Shown here one piece after another: positions 3,568 through 59,832 of a stretch of 64,000 nt of DNA. Position 1 is the stretch's first letter. Each line of letters begins with the position of its first letter. The stretch lies in sequence record OZ556245.1; one strand, given 5' to 3'. The position numbers and the translations under genes are program-made. The notes below the pieces were generated by a model, which was not told where the DNA came from, did no database searches, and saw only the letters and a list, made by a program, of their open reading frames with translations. This DNA comes from a phage.

Positions 3568-5745
3568 TTAGGCCGCAAGGGCCTTCATAGTTTTAGCGAT
3601 TTGGGAAACTTCATCATCACTTAAAGAGTTGCGATAACCGATGAAGTCGGAAACAATACGGAATTTCTTGGTAAACTCAGCAACCATTTTATCACTGTTT
3701 TTTGAAGCATTATTTGATAATACATCAAAAAGATTAGTTACTGTCCAGATGTCATGACCGATGGTACCTTTTCCACCGTTGAAATATATACCCTGCAATG
3801 AACTAACCATATTACCAAGGCGAGTATATTCTTCAGAAACTTCATCTACACTGAAGTACTTCATCATAAAATCTAACTCAGGATACTTGATAATTTTATC
3901 AATATATCGTTTAGCTGAACTTGAATAACCTACATACTTATCATAATCTACAGCATCAAAAGCATCTACATATAAATCACGTAGAGTTTCAAAAATACAT
4001 TGGCACTGACCGAGTTCTTTTACCTTTTTCTGCAAAAGCGGACGAATAACATAAAATTCATTAATGCCAATAAGATTAGCCATACGAGTCAAAATACTCG
4101 TAGATGGATGACAAAGCGATGTAGTACCATCCATAGAGAAAATATCAGAACGATGCATGTATGCTACATAACCAGTAATTTCATCTGCTTCTGATGTGAG
4201 TGTAAACAGTTCCTCTTTTTCCCAGCGTCCGTCTTTAATTTCAAACTTAAATGCAGTAGCAGCTTTAGGACGAGGAGCTTTACTTTTAACTACCTTCGGA
4301 ATATAACTTTTAACTAAAGCTTCAATTTCTGACAAATAATGAATGTTAACTTCATCACTTTCAAACATCGCAATAATATCAGGAAGTAAATCAATCTGCG
4401 ATTCTACTTCCGGGTTAATAAACAGAAGACGCTCATTATGATGAATATTTAAAGTGTTATTAAATTCACTATCATCTAACGCATGTGCTAATCCACGGAC
4501 AATATTAACACGATTTTTAATATCATCAATAACGATATTAATTTTTGTTGTATTAATACCGAACAGACGATAGCTTGATGCAACGGCTGAAGTTTCATGG
4601 CTTTGCTTAATGCGTTTCAGTCGAGGGTCAAGATTTACTTCATACACAACCCCTGCATTACATAACTTACTATCAGGTTCAAACATGCTCTGCATCTTCT
4701 TATATGACAAATTTTTAGTCGTGAATTTGACTGAATTACTAATCATATAATCTCGAGCAGAATACCCCATCTTCATCAATTCGCGATATGTGTGACGAGG
4801 AGATGTAGATTCTTTAAATCGTTTTACATCTTCATTAAATGCTTGCTCACTAAGTTCTTTAACTCGTTCAATAATATTTTTACGAGTACGATCATCCAGT
4901 GAAAGAGCCTCGCGAGATGGAGCAATATCAAGTGAACCCATTGGAAACTTAATGTAATTCACTTCATTACGAATGCTTAGCCAGTTACGCTCTCTAATAA
5001 CACCATCAATAGGATAAACAATACCGCCATAGATGGCATACAATCCACCACGATCAGGCCAATATCTTTCTGGATTTACGCCATAGTAGTCATCAAAATC
5101 CGGAAAATAATCAATTTCACGGTCAAGACCATTGATGATAGCCAAATCTTTGAATGGCCGCATGATATAAGAAACTTCATAAGCAAAGTTTCTAAAGTCT
5201 TTTTCTTCAACTGGAACTACGATTTCAATACCAGTTTTATCATCTGGGCCCATTTCTTTTACAAATGTAGGTTTAATTTGTGGACCATCGCCATCCATAT
5301 AAGCTACATAACCACGAATTTCGCCTTTATGATACGAAGTAATACTAAACGTATCAGTATAACTAAATGGAGATTTAGAACCTAAACCAAATCCGCCAAT
5401 GAAATCGTTGGATTCGGCTTTAGATGAACTGAAGTATGAATTATACAGACCAGGAGAATTATCATCACCTTGAATATCAAAATCGCTCATACCCGGACCA
5501 AAATCTCGGCAAACAAATCGCGGATCTAATCGTCCTGGAACTTGAATGATAAATTTTTCATGATTTCCATTGAGAGCATGGGCGTCAATCATGTTGGTAA
5601 TCAATTCACGGACTACTGCGCGAATCTTGTTTGTATACAAATCAGATGACAGAATTTTAAATACTTTAGGAGATGCTGTGATGCTAAATGCTTTTGATTT
5701 AGAACCATTACCAAGAATTGTTTCTTTTTCAGTGGTGATAATCAT
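3568..5745 (-). CDS. rIIA: rIIA protein with N-terminal GHKL-type ATPase fold
   Basis: 725 aa as T4 rIIA; Bergerat N-box ELITNMIDA and DFGPGM G1 box near N-terminus. Confidence 0.9.
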
Positions 5746-7902: not shown

Positions 7903-8170
7903 ATTTAAAACGGATAGTCGAATCCTTGAAGAATAGACCAGAACACACGGTTCCTTCTACTTTCTGCCCAGTAGGTCCAATAGCACGAAATCCAGTATGT
8001 TGAAAATCATTTTCAGAGCAACCGAACCAGTTGTATCCAGTGATTTCAATATTAGTAAAACCACTTGAAGACAAAACTTTGGTTGCATTATCAGCATCAG
8101 TACATCCTGCTAAAGACACTGCTAATACTAATGCTGCGATAGAACGATTAATATATTTCATAGTTTTCAC
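7901..8170 (-). CDS. small lipoprotein (89 aa)
   Basis: signal peptide with lipobox LAGC. Confidence 0.55.
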   Translation of the reverse strand: MKTMKYINRSIAALVLAVSLAGCTDADNATKVLSSSGFTNIEITGYNWFGCSENDFQHTGFRAIGPTGQKVEGTVCSGLFFKDSTIRFK

Positions 8171-8538
8171 TTAAATTTAATGGCTTGAAGGAGACTAATA
8201 ATTCTCAAGCGACTTCTTTCATCTTTAACTGTAAATGAAAGAGGGTCACCAGATTTCATAGTGATAGTGCATTCAAAATCAAAACCTTCGGGGACTTCTT
8301 CGAATAGGTCAAATTCTTCATCATATATTAGAACATTACTCTGAAAACTGTGAAGAATTTTTCCATCATTTCCAGATGCTGTACTAATCATTGTAACATT
8401 ATGGCCTTTCATATCTTCAACGATAAATTCGCTTGTAGATATTACGGCATTAATAGAACCATTCCTATAAATAGAAGAAAGTAGATATTTCTTTTCTTCA
8501 CCTTCGCGAACACGATATTTCTTACCGATTTTAAACAT
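8167..8538 (-). CDS. hypothetical protein (123 aa)
   Basis: ORF track trimmed from GTG to ATG; translationally coupled to upstream zinc-ribbon ORF. Confidence 0.5.
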   Translation of the reverse strand: MFKIGKKYRVREGEEKKYLLSSIYRNGSINAVISTSEFIVEDMKGHNVTMISTASGNDGKILHSFQSNVLIYDEEFDLFEEVPEGFDFECTITMKSGDPLSFTVKDERSRLRIISLLQAIKFK

Positions 8539-8540
8539 AA

Positions 8541-8717
8541 TCACCCTTTAAGTAAGTCGTAAAAACCACCATTCACATGCTTAGGAGCAGAAGGCCGACG
8601 AGTAGACAGACGATGACATTTAGGGCAAACATCATTTTCTCGTTCAGAAATCTTTTTAATTTTTTCATATTCATGCCCACAATCTTCGGATTGGCATTTA
8701 TAATCATACATTGGCAT
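8541..8717 (-). CDS. FmdB-family-like zinc-ribbon small protein (58 aa)
   Basis: hand-translated MPMYDYKCQSEDCGHEYE...CPKCH; CxxCG...CPxC pattern typical of FmdB zinc ribbon; AAGGAATAATT SD; absent from ORF track (under 60 aa). Confidence 0.5.
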   Translation of the reverse strand: MPMYDYKCQSEDCGHEYEKIKKISERENDVCPKCHRLSTRRPSAPKHVNGGFYDLLKG

Positions 8718-11199: not shown

Positions 11200-11883
11200 T
11201 TATCGTTTTGTTGGAAGAGACAGAGGATCGCACTCTTCCTCTGACGGAGCATCTTCAAGACCCATAGCATATCGCAAAGCATACTTCATCATCAGGATGT
11301 CTTTCGCACAGTCATGAATAGAATCATGCGCAACGAATCCGTCTAAAGTTCCCTTTGGAAGAGGACATGTAGTCATATCACGAACAAGCAGAAGTGCTTC
11401 AATTCTGGTACGAATATCACGCTGATTCCAGAATTTACATGGTTCTAACTTAAATGTATCAAGCTCATTCTCAGAAACGCCGTTAAAACGTTGAATATCA
11501 CGAATGAGATCGACTAAAATTGGAAAATCAAACGACATTCCACGGCACCAGCCTTGAGATTTCCAAGGATCAATGTTATGTGCATTGATGTAATCATTAA
11601 ATTTTGCAATACCGTCGATAGTGCTTACATCTTCATCTGATGGCGCAATATTTTTTCGAGCTTCAGGAGATTGATTTTTCCACCATTCGATAGTGCTTTT
11701 AGTAAAAAGACGATGTCCTTTTTGGCTTTTTAAATCAAACTTGATTTTAATGCCGCGTGAAACTAATTCATCAAATGTTTCAACTACTTCTGGGTTAGGA
11801 TCAAAGGCAATAACAGCTAAGTCAATAACAGCTGCTTTTTCACCGCTTCCCATTGTTTCAAAATCTATAATAAAATCAAACAT
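11200..11883 (-). CDS. dexA: exonuclease A (DEDD 3'-5' exonuclease)
   Basis: 227 aa as T4 DexA; N-terminal DFETMG exonuclease motif. Confidence 0.8.
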   Translation of the reverse strand: MFDFIIDFETMGSGEKAAVIDLAVIAFDPNPEVVETFDELVSRGIKIKFDLKSQKGHRLFTKSTIEWWKNQSPEARKNIAPSDEDVSTIDGIAKFNDYINAHNIDPWKSQGWCRGMSFDFPILVDLIRDIQRFNGVSENELDTFKLEPCKFWNQRDIRTRIEALLLVRDMTTCPLPKGTLDGFVAHDSIHDCAKDILMMKYALRYAMGLEDAPSEEECDPLSLPTKR

Positions 11884-12158
11884 TAAATTTTCCTCGCTAA
11901 ATCGCGAATTTGACCTACAGTATAATCTTGGATATAAACTTTATTAACGGGCTCATCAATAAATTTTGCCATAGATTCAATATCTTTTTGTATCTCTTCA
12001 AGACTGTATACTATCTTTAAAGCTTTTTCGCGAATAGTAACATTATCAGGTCCTGGATTTTCTTGAATGACAGCTTTAACATTTGCCATAAGAGATTTAA
12101 ACTGATGCAAACTCAATTCAATCATTAATAACCGCCTTATAAAGATGGCTAATTTCAC
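11883..12158 (-). CDS. hypothetical small protein (91 aa)
   Basis: ORF track. Confidence 0.45.
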   Translation of the reverse strand: MKLAIFIRRLLMIELSLHQFKSLMANVKAVIQENPGPDNVTIREKALKIVYSLEEIQKDIESMAKFIDEPVNKVYIQDYTVGQIRDLARKI

Positions 12159-12378
12159 CTAAAATATAATCACTGATTGTAACAGTTTTCACTTCACCGC
12201 AAAAGAATTCTAACGCAATCAAATCTCGTTCAATTTCTTCCAATTGAAGCATTAACTTGCCTGATTCAATTTTTACATTTGTACGATTTTTACTATAAGC
12301 TATTTCATAAATTTCGCTCACTTTATCTTGAAGCAGATAAAACTGGTCTTTAGTTATTTCCACGAATAGCTTCCTCAA
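12118..12378 (-). CDS. hypothetical small protein (86 aa)
   Basis: ORF track; 3' overlap with neighbor. Confidence 0.45.
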   Translation of the reverse strand: MRKLFVEITKDQFYLLQDKVSEIYEIAYSKNRTNVKIESGKLMLQLEEIERDLIALEFFCGEVKTVTISDYILGEISHLYKAVIND

Positions 12379-12610
12379 ATTTAATTAGTAATTTACAGAC
12401 ACTTTCATCTAGCGTAATTACCGTATCTGTATTACTGTGATATGATTGTTTTTCAATTCGTTTAATTGCTAGTATAGTATCACTTATAAGATTAAGCTTA
12501 TAAAGGAGCTCAGCTCCTGTTACCATAACACTGAGGTTATCTTGCTTATCAGTGTGCTTCTTTATACCATCTATTAGACGATTTAAATATTTTGAATTGA
12601 TGTTAATCAT
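12350..12610 (-). CDS. hypothetical small protein (86 aa)
   Basis: ORF track. Confidence 0.45.
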   Translation of the reverse strand: MININSKYLNRLIDGIKKHTDKQDNLSVMVTGAELLYKLNLISDTILAIKRIEKQSYHSNTDTVITLDESVCKLLIKFEEAIRGNN

Positions 12611-12616
12611 ATATCC

Positions 12617-13936
12617 TCACACATAAAACACATCATAACGACCACGAGTGACACCAACATAAAGAAGCTGCTGAGCCAATTCAGCGTCTGCATAATGAAT
12701 ACAAGGCGTATAGATGAAAGCACGGTCTACAGACATACCCTGCGCTTTATGGAACGTTGATGCAGGAAGTGCTTTCACTTTACTAAACTGTGATTTAGCA
12801 TCCCAAAAATCACTCCACGGAGCTTTTCCACCTTTATTCCAATTTTTATAAGTTTCTGCTGTTTTACCTAAAAATAGGTTAAACTTATACAGCTCTTCAT
12901 CAGATGAAATTATTTTAATCTTTTCACGATAATATTCATCATCGCCGTAAGTTTCTACTGTTAAATCCCAATGACGAATTAGATATTCTCCAGAAACACC
13001 ACGAGCTTTAACAAATGTTGATGTATACTCTGCTTCTATAATACGAACTAATTGTCCGTTATTAAAAATAATTTCTGACACAGGCTTTCCATCAATTTTA
13101 TATGTTTTAATTAATGGTTCCTGCATTACAATAATTTCACCAACGATAAAATCTTTATCAGTTTCAAAAATCTTTTTGCGAATAATGCTATTTAACTTAT
13201 CAACAGATTTATTCGTAAATGCCATTACGCGATTTTCAAACAAATCATCTAGTGATTTTACGATTGAAAAATAATTTACCATAAAATCGCGTAAAGCGGT
13301 ATCACCAGTAAATCCACGTACTCCATGGCCGTCAACAACTTTATCATAAATCCACTTACCGTTGCGAACATCAGTAGCTACATCAATAATAGGAGCATTA
13401 CTGCGTTTAACTTCAGTGAGTTCACACTGATAAAAATCTTTATGTGTAAAGAATGGACTGATATAAGCAGTGTTTTCTCCTGGGTCAACAGGTCTAATTT
13501 GCTTATTATCCCCTATTCCAATTATAGTACACCATGGCGGGATAGTTGAAAGTAGAATTTTGAATAGCTTTCTATCATACATTGACACTTCGTCGCAGAT
13601 TAATACTCTGCATTTAGCTAAATCCGGTACTTCTTTTTGTTCAAAAAGAACGTTTTCTTCATATGTTACTGGGTTAATTTTAAGAATACTGTGAATAGTA
13701 CTCGCTTCTTTCCCTGACAGTTTTGAAAGAATCTTTTTAGCTGCATGTGTAGGAGCTGCTAAAATAATGCCAGTTTCGCCTGTAGATATTAAGGCTTCAA
13801 TGATAAACTTGGTAAGAGTAGTCTTACCAGTACCGGCAGGTCCATTAATAGTCACATGATGTTTCTTTTCTTTGATAGCCCTCATAACAATGTTAAAGGC
13901 ATTTTTCTGACCTTCGGTCAAATCATCAAATGTCAT
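12617..13936 (-). CDS. dda: Dda DNA helicase (SF1B)
   Basis: 439 aa as T4 Dda; Walker A GPAGTGKTT. Confidence 0.85.
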   Translation of the reverse strand: MTFDDLTEGQKNAFNIVMRAIKEKKHHVTINGPAGTGKTTLTKFIIEALISTGETGIILAAPTHAAKKILSKLSGKEASTIHSILKINPVTYEENVLFEQKEVPDLAKCRVLICDEVSMYDRKLFKILLSTIPPWCTIIGIGDNKQIRPVDPGENTAYISPFFTHKDFYQCELTEVKRSNAPIIDVATDVRNGKWIYDKVVDGHGVRGFTGDTALRDFMVNYFSIVKSLDDLFENRVMAFTNKSVDKLNSIIRKKIFETDKDFIVGEIIVMQEPLIKTYKIDGKPVSEIIFNNGQLVRIIEAEYTSTFVKARGVSGEYLIRHWDLTVETYGDDEYYREKIKIISSDEELYKFNLFLGKTAETYKNWNKGGKAPWSDFWDAKSQFSKVKALPASTFHKAQGMSVDRAFIYTPCIHYADAELAQQLLYVGVTRGRYDVFYV

Positions 13937-14244
13937 CGTAAATTCCCTGCAATTGGTATACTAACAATACGCCCAGTATCTAAAATTCGCCGATATAATC
14001 TTTGTGTGTCTACATCAGGCTTAACACGTTTAACTTCTATTTTATTAAACCAAAACTTGCGTGGAGTCTCAACTAATCTCGGAATTCCCATACCTAAAGC
14101 TAGTCGATACTGCTCTTTAAGAGTAGTAAATACTTTATCAGCAATCTCCCTTTCAAAAAATACAGCAGGGCGATGTTCATCAAGCGGAACTGGCGCCGTA
14201 AATCCATCTTTATCTCTATAAACTATCGCATATACATAAAACAT
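13933..14244 (-). CDS. hypothetical protein (103 aa), dda.1 position
   Basis: ORF track. Confidence 0.5.
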   Translation of the reverse strand: MFYVYAIVYRDKDGFTAPVPLDEHRPAVFFEREIADKVFTTLKEQYRLALGMGIPRLVETPRKFWFNKIEVKRVKPDVDTQRLYRRILDTGRIVSIPIAGNLR

Positions 14245-17429: not shown

Positions 17430-17901
17430 TTGTTTTACCTAAAACAATAGTAGGAGCATCGTCAAATTCATGAATTTTTAGCAATTTTGGATTTAAATTA
17501 TTCCATACATAATAAATGAAGTATGATAAAGCATCTTCACTCGCAATTATAAATTTATTTCCTTTATCTATTTTCCAGTCATATACTGAATCATATGAAT
17601 ATAATGGCAATGGTTTATTGTTATAATATGATTCAGCAACATCAATATAGTTAGATTTAGTAAATGCTTGAATTGACATAAATGGAGAATTTCGTACAGT
17701 TTCAATAATTCCGATCTTTTTAAGTTTTATTTCAACATCTTCTGGAACTGGCATTGAAATAAAATCTTCTACTAGATACATGTTATTATCATATCTTTTA
17801 TCAATTATTACTGCTACTGTAATTGGAATATCTTTAGCAAATGCCATGCTATCACTGCTAATATACATTTCAAACAAAATTGCTTCCATAATTTTCCTCA
17901 A
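17404..17901 (-). CDS. hypothetical protein (165 aa)
   Basis: ORF track. Confidence 0.5.
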
Positions 17902-18236
17902 TCACAAGATGTAGATGAACAACTAGAATCACAAGAACTTCCACATGAATCGCCCGTCCACACATGAACAGGAACATTAGTATCATATGAATCAGAACTA
18001 GACTGTGTATTCTGCGTATTAGATGATGTAGGTGTTGACCAACGCCAAGGATTTTTATAATATTCCTGGGCTTCTTCATAAGTCATAGTAACTGCTTCTA
18101 CTGTTCCATCTCCCATATAAACATATTCAACTACAGTTAAAGGAAGGTAGTCATTTGAAATAGGAACTACACCTTCTCCGGGAGTCGTAGAGAAAAAATC
18201 CGTAAAGAAACTTTTAAACCAATTAAAGATAAACAT
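17898..18236 (-). CDS. hypothetical protein with Cys/Ser-rich C-terminal tail (112 aa)
   Basis: ORF track; tail [17 protein letters not shown]. Confidence 0.45.
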
Positions 18237-19018: not shown

Positions 19019-19215
19019 TTTGAATGCTCTATAATTAATTTTAAGGCTTCTTCATGCACCTTACCTAATTGTATATGTCCAGTTTTAATTGTGTAAGCTT
19101 TGTGGAGCTGATTAGATAAGAGCTCACATACGAGCTCTTTGTCATAATTTTTAAATAGCTGGTCAATACGTTTCTTGTGGGCTTTCTTAAGCTGGCGTTT
19201 ATTTAAACGAGCCAT
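19015..19215 (-). CDS. hypothetical small basic protein (66 aa)
   Basis: ORF track. Confidence 0.45.
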   Translation of the reverse strand: MARLNKRQLKKAHKKRIDQLFKNYDKELVCELLSNQLHKAYTIKTGHIQLGKVHEEALKLIIEHSK

Positions 19216-19733
19216 TAATAACCTCGGTCTTGACGAGCGAAGTTTTCAGCATTTTTCAGATAATAAAGTTTAAAGATTTCTTCAGCCGTAAGACCGAGAC
19301 CTTGGAACATGTTCAGAACGAAATGAAGAATATCAATCATTTCGAATTTAATTTCCAACTGGTCTTGTGGAGACAAATCAGTAATCAGAGTTTCACGTCG
19401 TTCACCATGCTGAGCTTTCCAAGGCTTCCATACAGCAGATGCATCTTTTTCACCATTGCTCATACCACCAAGAGAAGTCAATAGTTCGCGGAATTCATCA
19501 TCAATATAATCTTTCTGATTACGCAGCCAATCAACAACTTCACCCGCAGTAGCCAAATCATCAGGATGACGGTTATATTCAGGTTTATCTTTAGCTAAAC
19601 GAACCTGCAGAGATTTCTGCATATCAAGCATAACCTGCAGCGGGTCTTTTTCATCACCGAGAATATCCCAGTATTCATTTTGAGCTTTATCAGCGCCTTC
19701 AATCAGTTGTGAACATTCATTAAAGTATGCCAT
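19215..19733 (-). CDS. 56: dCTP pyrophosphatase (dCTPase/dUTPase, MazG-like)
   Basis: ORF track 19215..19826 trimmed to internal ATG (MAYFNECSQ...) with AAGGAAAAATA SD, giving about 172 aa as T4 gp56. Confidence 0.8.
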   Translation of the reverse strand: MAYFNECSQLIEGADKAQNEYWDILGDEKDPLQVMLDMQKSLQVRLAKDKPEYNRHPDDLATAGEVVDWLRNQKDYIDDEFRELLTSLGGMSNGEKDASAVWKPWKAQHGERRETLITDLSPQDQLEIKFEMIDILHFVLNMFQGLGLTAEEIFKLYYLKNAENFARQDRGY

Positions 19734-19804
19734 TATTTTTCCTTTCAATTCATGGGTTAGTAGATTAATTATACAATAAATATATAAAGCAATAAGGAGG
19801 ATAT

Positions 19805-19900
19805 ATGGTACAAAAATTAATGGCACTTGTCGATGCCATAAAAGGTAATAAAAAACGTATAGCTTTTACTATTTCTGTTATGATAGGAATTTTACTCTGA
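19805..19900 (+). CDS. candidate plus-strand micro-ORF (31 codons, TGA stop)
   Basis: AAGGAGG SD 4 nt before ATG; lies in the only sizeable gap between minus-strand genes 56 and 61; followed in frame by 34 hydrophobic codons. Confidence 0.25.
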   Translation: MVQKLMALVDAIKGNKKRIAFTISVMIGILL

Positions 19901-20001
19901 AATTTTGTTTTATCACCAATTGCTATTGCTCATGGTGTTAATATTCCGGTAATTACTCTTGATACATTCGTAGATTTAGCATTTGCTTTGGTTGGGTTAA
20001 T

Positions 20002-21030
20002 TTAAATCTTAGCATATTTAGATAGCCGCATTTTAGCCATCAACCCTTGGGCAATATTATTTTTCATATATTCCATAATTTGTTTAGGGGTTGCACCTTC
20101 CTTTCTAATCATATCATTAACATCTTTTGATTTCCAGGGAGATTTGTCCCAAAACATAACCCTTTCTCCTGCATCAACTAATTTAGTCATTCGTTTAATA
20201 GTGTCAGGATGACGAGGTTCATTATCTAAAACCCATACACGTCTATCTTTAAATGGAACAATTTCTAGGTCTAATTGACCACCCGTAATAGCTATACCAT
20301 TTTCAATAAAAAGTGAATCTATAGGTCCTTCTAGAACATATACATCACCATCTTTGACTCGTTCGACTCCATAGATTTTTGTTGCCTCAGGATAAGCTTT
20401 GATGGTGATATATTTTTGAGGAGCATCTTTCTTTAATGCACGTCCTTGAAAAGACTCGGCTTTTCCGTTAGCATTATAAATTGGAATAACAAGACGAGGC
20501 TCAGGTATTTCCTTTTTATATGTTCCTGGCGCTATGCTATTAACTAATTTAGGCCATTCGGTTGTAAACCAAAGATATTTCCATTTATTCTTTGGAATAC
20601 AACGAGCTTTTACATATTTTATAATTGGATGGTCTTCCGCCAGTTTATCTAATCTAATGCATGACGGAAGAGATTTAATTATTTTCTTCTCAGGTTGTTT
20701 AGGAAGTTCTTTAGGTTTTTCTACTGGACGACTTTTACCTTTTTCTTTTCTTATTTCAAAGATATACTCACGATATAAATCAGGTTCAAACTCCTTTAAA
20801 TATATTCCGATTGGTGCATGATAGTTGCAGTTATAACAATGAATATTTCCTTCATTATTATCACCATAATACCATCCACGGGCTTTATTTTGGTCGGTTT
20901 TTGAATCTCCACAAACAGGGCATCTAAACCGTAATTTAAAAGTTGAACTATTATTTACTTGTGTGAATTTAGGTAAATGAGCTAATGCACGGTATGCAAA
21001 CTCATTATCAATCCAAGGTATTGATGACAT
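20002..21030 (-). CDS. 61: DNA primase gp61
   Basis: 342 aa as T4 gp61; N-terminal zinc ribbon CPVCG...CYNC. Confidence 0.9.
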   Translation of the reverse strand: MSSIPWIDNEFAYRALAHLPKFTQVNNSSTFKLRFRCPVCGDSKTDQNKARGWYYGDNNEGNIHCYNCNYHAPIGIYLKEFEPDLYREYIFEIRKEKGKSRPVEKPKELPKQPEKKIIKSLPSCIRLDKLAEDHPIIKYVKARCIPKNKWKYLWFTTEWPKLVNSIAPGTYKKEIPEPRLVIPIYNANGKAESFQGRALKKDAPQKYITIKAYPEATKIYGVERVKDGDVYVLEGPIDSLFIENGIAITGGQLDLEIVPFKDRRVWVLDNEPRHPDTIKRMTKLVDAGERVMFWDKSPWKSKDVNDMIRKEGATPKQIMEYMKNNIAQGLMAKMRLSKYAKI

Positions 21031-45739: not shown

Positions 45740-46225
45740 TCAAGTATTGTAAAACATTTGATGCAATCGCTTATATTGCCGAATCTTTTGGTCAGAAAAA
45801 GAAATTTGAGTTTCAAGCCATTCAATATATTCTGCTGCAGCTTGCATCAAATTTCCTTCATAACCATCATTATTTTCTTGTGCAGCTAATTTAGCTAATG
45901 CATATGAAATACGTTCACCTTGAAAAGCGGCTTTAGGTTTATGAAGAGCTTGATCAACTCGTTCTACAACTTCTTCAATTTCGCCATTTTCCGCTGATTC
46001 AGTATTCCACAAGCACCAATACGTAATTGGCTTATCATAGATGTTAATAATCTTTCCATCAGAAAGTTCAATTTCAATAATTCCAGTATCAGGTTCTATA
46101 TCATCTTCGCATTCTTTTGCAAGTTCACGAACTTTAAAGACAGTACCTGCACTAAGTTCCGGCCAGTAATTACACAGCCCTTTATCAGCACGATTAATTC
46201 TAAACCACTTATCTACTGCAATCAT
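45740..46225 (-). CDS. hypothetical protein at T4 pin position (about 161 aa)
   Basis: ORF track 45740..46243 trimmed from TTG to first ATG; synteny only. Confidence 0.45.
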   Translation of the reverse strand: MIAVDKWFRINRADKGLCNYWPELSAGTVFKVRELAKECEDDIEPDTGIIEIELSDGKIINIYDKPITYWCLWNTESAENGEIEEVVERVDQALHKPKAAFQGERISYALAKLAAQENNDGYEGNLMQAAAEYIEWLETQISFSDQKIRQYKRLHQMFYNT

Positions 46226-46679: not shown

Positions 46680-46889
46680 TTAATTTCGCAATTTATTAAG
46701 TTCTTCATAATCAATCCAGGATTCTAGTCCTGATGGCAAATCAGATTCAATTTCCCAAAGAAGTTCTTCAATTTTCTGAAGACGATCTAATTCTTCAGCA
46801 GGAATAGTAACCATTGACGGAGTTCTTGATACGCTAATATCGTAAATCATATTTACCCCAGTTTGACCATACAATCGCCATATTTCCAT
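46680..46889 (-). CDS. hypothetical small protein (69 aa)
   Basis: ORF track. Confidence 0.45.
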   Translation of the reverse strand: MEIWRLYGQTGVNMIYDISVSRTPSMVTIPAEELDRLQKIEELLWEIESDLPSGLESWIDYEELNKLRN

Positions 46890-47068
46890 TTAGAAATAGA
46901 CTTTTCACCATTAGAATAATAAACTTCAAGTTTAGCACGATTATTTTTAATTTGAATAACCTTTGCTGTCATCAAAGTTCCATACCCATAATAAACTGCA
47001 ACCTCATCACCTACATATACCGCGCTTCCGCGGTAGTCATGGATATAATCAGTTCCTTCGAGCATCAT
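46853..47068 (-). CDS. hypothetical small protein (71 aa)
   Basis: ORF track. Confidence 0.45.
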   Translation of the reverse strand: MMLEGTDYIHDYRGSAVYVGDEVAVYYGYGTLMTAKVIQIKNNRAKLEVYYSNGEKSISKWKYGDCMVKLG

Positions 47069-59577: not shown

Positions 59578-59790
59578 TCATTTTTGTCCTGTATTTACTT
59601 TATGCCGATGCACGGCCTTAACTTTATCAAGGTATTTTTCAAAATTTCGCAATCTAGTATAGTCTGCCGGAGATTGGTTGAGTGATACTTCTCGACGCAA
59701 AGCTGAAATGATATTTCCAACTTCCCTACGAATTTCATCTAATTGAAGAACAGTAAGATTGCGAAGTTGCTTTTCAGTTAATTGTAGCAT
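59578..59790 (-). CDS. hypothetical protein (70 aa)
   Basis: ORF track. Confidence 0.45.
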
Positions 59791-59832
59791 ATATACCCCT
59801 TTAGTTAGATAAACCTATTTATAACTTTTGCA

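Follow-up and report, generated by a model that had tools for sequence, protein, structure and literature searches.

Phage T4T encodes Dam.1 (ADJ39749.1), equivalent to RB32ORF030w, next to the DNA primase gene 61. The T4T gene runs opposite to the primase gene, overlaps it by 4 nt and is preceded by a Shine-Dalgarno (SD) sequence and a late-promoter motif. In both T4 and T4T, dam is found between gene 56 and dam.1, and T4 additionally has segF between soc and gene 56. The resulting T4 order is soc-segF-56-dam-(dam.1 ORF)-61, and the preliminary description of the present locus was right to place dam and segF around this interval in T4. The dam.1 open reading frame (ORF) of T4 is unannotated: NC_000866.4 contains an intact, conserved 66-codon ORF between dam and 61 (~17738-17938) without a RefSeq CDS, whereas T4T and most of the newer genomes do annotate the gene. 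As for UGA stops in phage genes, classical T4 opal mutants are leaky, and in phage Q-beta programmed UGA readthrough with insertion of Trp extends the coat protein to A1. In Q-beta this stop has been conserved, and the phage cannot do without the extended protein.

The window, i.e., the whole 64,000-nucleotide stretch of OZ556245.1 that was analysed, comes from a T4-like phage (Tequatrovirus); across 8 kb, it and the nearest relative with a known sequence are 98.8% identical. Genes 56 and 61 are separated in the window by a gap of 268 bp (Table 1), which carries on its plus strand an ORF with the same position, orientation, overlap, SD sequence and late motif as T4T dam.1. The AAGGAGG, the ATG, the 31 codons, the TGA and the 34 in-frame codons listed in the preliminary description were all located where it had placed them. 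The codons after the TGA are mostly hydrophobic, include no ATG, and end with a TAA (20003-20005) that overlaps the gene 61 stop by 4 nt; an identical overlap is annotated in relatives. The window differs from T4 and T4T in that dam.1 directly abuts the gene 56 promoter region, and from T4 in that there is no segF, the place of which is occupied by two small ORFs; this layout is common to 323 of 556 matching phage records. Neither dam nor segF fits the gap, as had been suspected. Neither is encoded elsewhere in the window: T4 Dam and SegF gave nothing better than E 0.76 by tblastn against the whole window. Another small gene of a relative, EPIMAM01_00074 (58 residues), follows gene 49 and precedes the next ORF. 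Only the final 18 residues of its product have a counterpart in the window (72% identity; 45743-45796, minus strand), and the gene appears to have been replaced or to have diverged there.

Table 1. Features of the interval between gene 56 and gene 61 in the window (OZ556245.1).
Feature	Positions	Strand	Basis or remark
Gene 56 (dCTPase/dUTPase), left flank	19215..19733	-	ORF list and annotated relatives
Putative middle promoter of gene 56: MotA box ATTGCTTTA, 11-nt spacer, TATAAT	19793..19785 (MotA box); 19773..19768 (TATAAT)	-	
Late-promoter-type (gp55) motif AATAAATA; predicted start ~19788	19775..19782	+	Motif match, conservation
dam.1 SD sequence AAGGAGG, 4 nt 5' of ATG 19805	19794..19800	+	Direct reading
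dam.1 5' part: codons 1-31 and premature TGA	19805..19900	+	ORF list, translation
Candidate terminator-like hairpin, 7-bp stem and U-rich tail	19810..19839	-	Inside dam.1 codons 6-12
Opal codon TGA in place of invariant Trp32 TGG (G to A at 19900)	19898..19900	+	Comparison with relatives
dam.1 3' part: codons 33-66 and TAA	19901..20005	+	In frame with 5' part; residues match orthologs
Gene 61 (DNA primase), right flank, convergent with dam.1	20002..21030	-	ORF list, relatives

By homology and position, the gap holds an ortholog of T4T dam.1/RB32ORF030w (PHROG 2024), a plus-strand gene of 62-70 codons, i.e., a known uncharacterised gene and not a new micro-ORF. In the closest genomes precisely this position is annotated with a plus-strand CDS of 201 nt that has no interruption. 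The intact 201-nt ORF, with TGG at codon 32, was found in UGKSEcP2, vB_SsoM_113 (as RB32ORF030w), C2-3 (as 'putative membrane protein'), T4 and T4T; labels in relatives include 'hypothetical protein', 'putative membrane protein', RB32ORF030w and, in T4T, dam.1. Codons 1-31 of the window align to codons 1-31 of the 66-codon orthologs. The window and T4T Dam.1 are 91% identical (60/66), or 92% over the 65 sense codons, with six amino acid differences in addition to the stop. When the window translation was searched with Trp restored at codon 32, PHROG 2024 (function unknown) was matched over residues 2-66 at E 2.7e-30. Pfam, NCBIfam and PADLOC contained no family match for dam.1, and a PDB sequence search returned noise only. 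The suggestion of a small convergent gene was thus borne out: a conserved plus-strand gene, converging on gene 61, is annotated as a CDS in relatives, and the interval is not conserved as non-coding DNA.

Searches with tblastn found dam.1 in 698 phage records from several T4-like genera. About 500 of these were Tequatrovirus records at 89% identity or more, and ~195 were records of other genera (Mosigvirus, Gaprivervirus, Kanagawavirus) at 36-56% identity. Among the listed records and fetched loci, dam.1 adjoins the primase gene, except that a single fragmentary record names no primase at its match. The 56/ORF/61 synteny also holds in a relative that lies beyond the reach of tblastn and was picked up with a profile. 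In the window as in the family, the ORF lies on the opposite strand, between 56 (or dam) and 61, and its stop touches or overlaps that of the primase gene. When 5.8 billion proteins were searched with a profile, 109 clusters resulted, almost all of 62-73 residues; an exhaustive search by profile among 1.84 billion representatives gave only 18 matches, all but one of them small proteins (33-70 residues). Ten remote profile matches were scanned and all matched PHROG 2024. Across genera, the family ORF is 57-70 codons long, down to ~20-30% identity. The window lacks an uninterrupted ORF of this length (~57-70 codons), the frame being closed by TGA at codon 32, and is in this respect a disrupted member of the family. 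Two observations concern paralogs: Gaprivervirus genomes carry two tandem, diverged dam.1 paralogs (~22% mutual identity) between 56 and 61 (loci L013 and L014, each 395-801), and Kanagawavirus carries the second paralog type only (locus L015, 368-577), the type to which protein matches from Klebsiella phages also belong.

Comparison of alleles shows that dam.1 is a protein-coding gene under purifying selection. Among Tequatrovirus dam.1 alleles dN/dS was ~0.12-0.3, and variable sites in 16 alleles numbered 10/4/15 at codon positions 1/2/3. Across 36 diverse homologs only M1, W32, N33, P38 and G44 were invariant, and the W-N pair was retained in nine of 11 remote homologs retrieved. The window keeps Asn33 of this pair; with TGA as its codon 32, the pair itself is broken. 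The window ORF differs from the best allele by 2%, not clearly above the regional background of 1.2%, and the codons past the TGA show no extra damage. Given this background, the ORF divergence gives no sign of long-term relaxed constraint.

The putative expression signals upstream of dam.1 resemble those of a late gene. Like the family in every genus examined, the window has an nATAAATA motif and a strong SD sequence upstream of the ORF, and the AAGGAGG was kept in dam.1 relatives from all of these genera. Late promoters of T4 have the consensus TATAAATA from -13 to -6, in which T-13 is often A in T4-like phages (PMC1524935). ATAAATA is depleted ~8-fold in the window, with five copies against 39.6 +/- 7.4 expected. 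Four of the five sit 22-30 nt 5' of an ATG, in front of soc (TATAAATA), gene 49 (AATAAATA), a 70-codon ORF at 59790 (TATAAATA) and dam.1 (AATAAATA). For the combination ATAAATA-N14-24-ATG, 8.9 copies would be expected in the window, and the sole copy present is the one at dam.1; it ends at the dam.1 ATG in 22 of 22 homologous loci. A distant relative has GATAAATA 14 nt before its dam.1 ATG. From these motifs and their conservation, dam.1 would be transcribed and translated late. Two other late-type sites were seen in the window. The 70-codon ORF at 59790 is on the minus strand, with its perfect TATAAATA at 59815-59822 and an SD sequence in front. A perfect plus-strand late 8-mer TATAAATA lies at 8466-8473, inside a minus-strand ORF (8167-8547) and with no ATG in the 60 nt that follow. 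EPIMAM01 has kept this site (position 4910), which, given the ~8-fold depletion of ATAAATA, may be a functional antisense late promoter.

The minus strand of the same interval also carries putative signals. The consensus MotA box is (a/t)(a/t)(a/t)TGCTTtA, 12 +/- 1 bp from the -10 element (PMC2988021). The MotA/-10 element assigned to gene 56 (19768..19793) fits this consensus well and occupies some of the same base pairs as the plus-strand late motif of dam.1. The arrangement also occurs in sutha, VR26, MN01 and one distant relative, and would serve gene 56 as a middle promoter. The candidate terminator-like hairpin lies ~165 nt past the primase stop and was found in Tequatrovirus alleles; it was absent from Mosigvirus, Gaprivervirus and Kanagawavirus. 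No plus-strand terminator-like site was found within 2.5 kb 3' of dam.1, and it may be speculated that a late dam.1 transcript runs antisense into gene 61.

The AlphaFold2 model of Dam.1 (36-sequence alignment) had a mean pLDDT of 86 and contained three helices, at residues 2-11, 15-42 and 52-65. Residues 19-42 had a mean Kyte-Doolittle hydropathy of 2.1. Five basic residues occur among the N-terminal 18, while the C-terminal part has two acidic residues, no basic residue and a hydrophobic end. The model suggests that Dam.1 is likely an N-in, single-span inner-membrane protein with a transmembrane helix at ~19-42; the N-terminal helix is predicted to be basic and amphipathic, and the short C-terminal helix acidic and amphipathic. 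Trp32 falls inside the predicted transmembrane helix. Foldseek against viral structures returned only the dam.1 family itself. One guess at a role would be an accessory late envelope or inner-membrane protein, dispensable in culture.

A holin was considered as the identity of Dam.1 and found no support. The OE5505 ortholog bears the automatic, unreviewed UniProt name 'Holin', and Dam.1 resembles class II-type phage holins in its small size, hydrophobic helix and inferred late expression. One transmembrane domain is present, but there is no charged hydrophilic C-terminus, and the neighbours are replication genes, with no lysis cassette. No Pfam holin family was matched, and the single holin-profile match was marginal (E 5e-4) and came from a remote homolog. 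The known holin of T4 is gpT.

The 'micro-ORF' of the preliminary description arises from one nucleotide. In the alignment to relatives, the change of TGG to TGA at codon 32 is the only difference that creates it; codon 32 was TGG in every relative examined, the 15 other Tequatrovirus alleles of the comparison included. Megablast of 50,697 phage records with exact 33-mers that had the TGA at their centre, in the three commonest flank variants, gave no match, while the TGG control 33-mer had 62 matches in phage records. The TGA allele was not found in IMG/VR, its only two matches in JGI metagenomes were unrelated chance sequence, and no 31-residue product was on record. Private changes of the window among 16 alleles were the nonsense change at 19900, a synonymous change at 19948 and A25V (19878), the last of which also occurs in the PhiZZ6 cluster. 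Among the 87 CDS of the nearest relative that were compared, 84 are intact and full length in the window and only dam.1 has an in-frame stop. The TGA is therefore read as a private point mutation, with an error in base calling as the less likely alternative, and not as a conserved recoding signal. Comparative sequence evidence thus favours an ordinary nonsense allele, null or leaky, of a conserved dam.1 with a private G to A opal change, as opposed to programmed readthrough, and a probability of about 0.8 was assigned to this reading.

Other disrupted copies in the family are of varying quality. The disrupted P0102 allele is in an assembly full of frameshifts and is probably an artefact. That of P0109, from a run assembly in which the neighbouring genes are intact, has a frameshift caused by a homopolymer going from T4 to T5, and its reality is doubtful. 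In PP337211.1, a public 175-kb T4-like genome, dam, primase and dam.1 are all fragmented (11616-14186), which suggests an error-rich assembly, the truncated family members of which should not be taken as natural pseudogenes.

Under the nonsense-allele reading, most ribosomes that initiate at the ATG behind the strong SD sequence would stop at the UGA, releasing a 31-residue fragment. The fragment would comprise helix 1 and half of the transmembrane helix and would probably be non-functional; because its 13 hydrophobic residues (19-31) are too short for a membrane span, the allele would be null or strongly hypomorphic. At a small fraction of passages Trp-tRNA would misread the UGA and produce full-length Dam.1 with the wild-type Trp32. 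In an E. coli reporter, UGA readthrough by Trp-tRNA was ~2% at 37 C and 4% at 25 C (PMC10570021). The UGA context in dam.1 is CUC UGA AAU; no usable literature source was found on the effect of the fourth base on UGA in E. coli. Such leakiness is best explained as incidental and not as a designed recoding signal. The loss of function and the level of readthrough are, like late transcription and the membrane topology, predictions. Undamaged codons after the TGA would fit a very recent mutation and also continued use through readthrough.

The alternative that survives best, although unlikely, is a sequencing or assembly error, in which case the phage would truly have TGG at codon 32 and an intact dam.1. 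The change involves a single base and is present in no other genome, and imperfect consensus quality could be indicated by a homopolymer difference to the nearest relative that splits another ORF. Near 46,860 the window has G4 and EPIMAM01 has G5, and one 129-residue EPIMAM01 CDS corresponds to two overlapping ORFs in the window (46853-47068 and 46680-46889, minus strand; 71 and 69 residues). The change at 19900 is, however, a substitution and not a homopolymer indel. Private substitutions are expected in a lineage ~1.2% diverged (over 8 kb) from its nearest sequenced relative, and the ORF has the two further changes private among the 16 alleles. The 84 intact, full-length CDS also argue against error.

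Very unlikely is a programmed or selected UGA readthrough, in which a 31-residue peptide and a controlled, small amount of full-length Dam.1 would be made as a dosage device. Of the stop codons, UGA leaks most in E. coli, and because the tRNA that reads it carries Trp, the ancestral residue would be regained (PMC10570021); the 34 codons downstream are undamaged. These undamaged codons are, however, equally expected from a recent mutation, and the stop is conserved in none of hundreds of relatives. No readthrough stimulator or SECIS-like hairpin follows the UGA in the RNA fold of 19788-19960 (z = -0.2 vs shuffles), and RNA folds on both strands were not significant. A tRNA scan of the window found no tRNA or suppressor gene. 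Readthrough as a designed feature, which the preliminary description had raised, is therefore disfavoured: the relatives examined have TGG, the TGA did not turn up in any other sequence searched, stimulatory RNA structure is lacking and this phage uses TGA as a normal stop codon. It would be similarly surprising if the opal codon were tolerated or even selected for its effect, with misreading regenerating wild-type Dam.1 at a few percent so that the allele acts as a dosage-reducing switch with an abundant 31-residue second product.

It is still less probable that the plus-strand ORF is not a gene and that the interval is regulatory DNA, i.e., gene 56 promoter and primase terminator, with an incidental frame. 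The MotA-box/-10 promoter-like element and the terminator-like hairpin on the minus strand are in keeping with such a role, as is the missing annotation in the T4 RefSeq genome. An incidental frame would nevertheless not account for an ORF of 57-70 codons kept across genera with invariant W-N, P and G residues, a dN/dS of ~0.2 with a surplus of third-position changes, or the conserved strong SD sequence and late-promoter motif; the minus-strand hairpin is limited to Tequatrovirus and the ORF is not. Reading the UGA as selenocysteine, or as Trp in an alternative code, is effectively refuted, since nothing but the in-frame UGA itself speaks for it, and against it 32 of 83 long minus-strand ORFs in the window end in TGA (the standard code), no other conserved gene has an in-frame TGA, no stable SECIS-like hairpin follows the UGA and relatives encode the Trp with TGG.

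The apparent micro-ORF with readthrough is thus best read as a common type of nonsense allele, in a gene for which hundreds of relatives already have an annotation. The claim that the interval holds the only convincing plus-strand translation signal in 64 kb held approximately: in the ORF census of the window, dam.1 was the only plus-strand ORF with a full AAGGAGG outside the long minus-strand ORFs, and in the nearest annotated relative dam.1 is the sole plus-strand CDS among 88 in 50 kb. Within a block of early and middle genes that spans ~50 kb, no other late gene on the opposite strand is apparent, and dam.1 shares with gene 56 a compact divergent region of putative promoters. It is conserved across the T4-like genera examined, yet missing from T4 RefSeq; literature searches on dam.1, RB32ORF030w, T4 Ribo-seq and T4 small proteins found nothing relevant, including on dam.1 expression. 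The natural opal allele offers a handle for testing dam.1 function. It suggests that, for propagation of the OZ556245.1 phage, the gene is dispensable or very low dosage is tolerated, so that at most trace amounts of Dam.1 would be needed.

Among the known systems, the window allele resembles the leaky opal mutants of T-even phages and E. coli, with TGG changed to TGA and, as predicted for the window, a truncated product together with a few percent of Trp-containing, full-length protein. Unlike the classical opal mutants, it is a natural allele, and of a presumably non-essential gene. The window and Q-beta are alike in that a UGA is decoded by the host Trp-tRNA at a few percent to give an extended product, which for the window is a prediction. 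Unlike the stop of Q-beta, that of the window belongs to a single genome and falls within a conserved domain, in place of a residue that does not vary.
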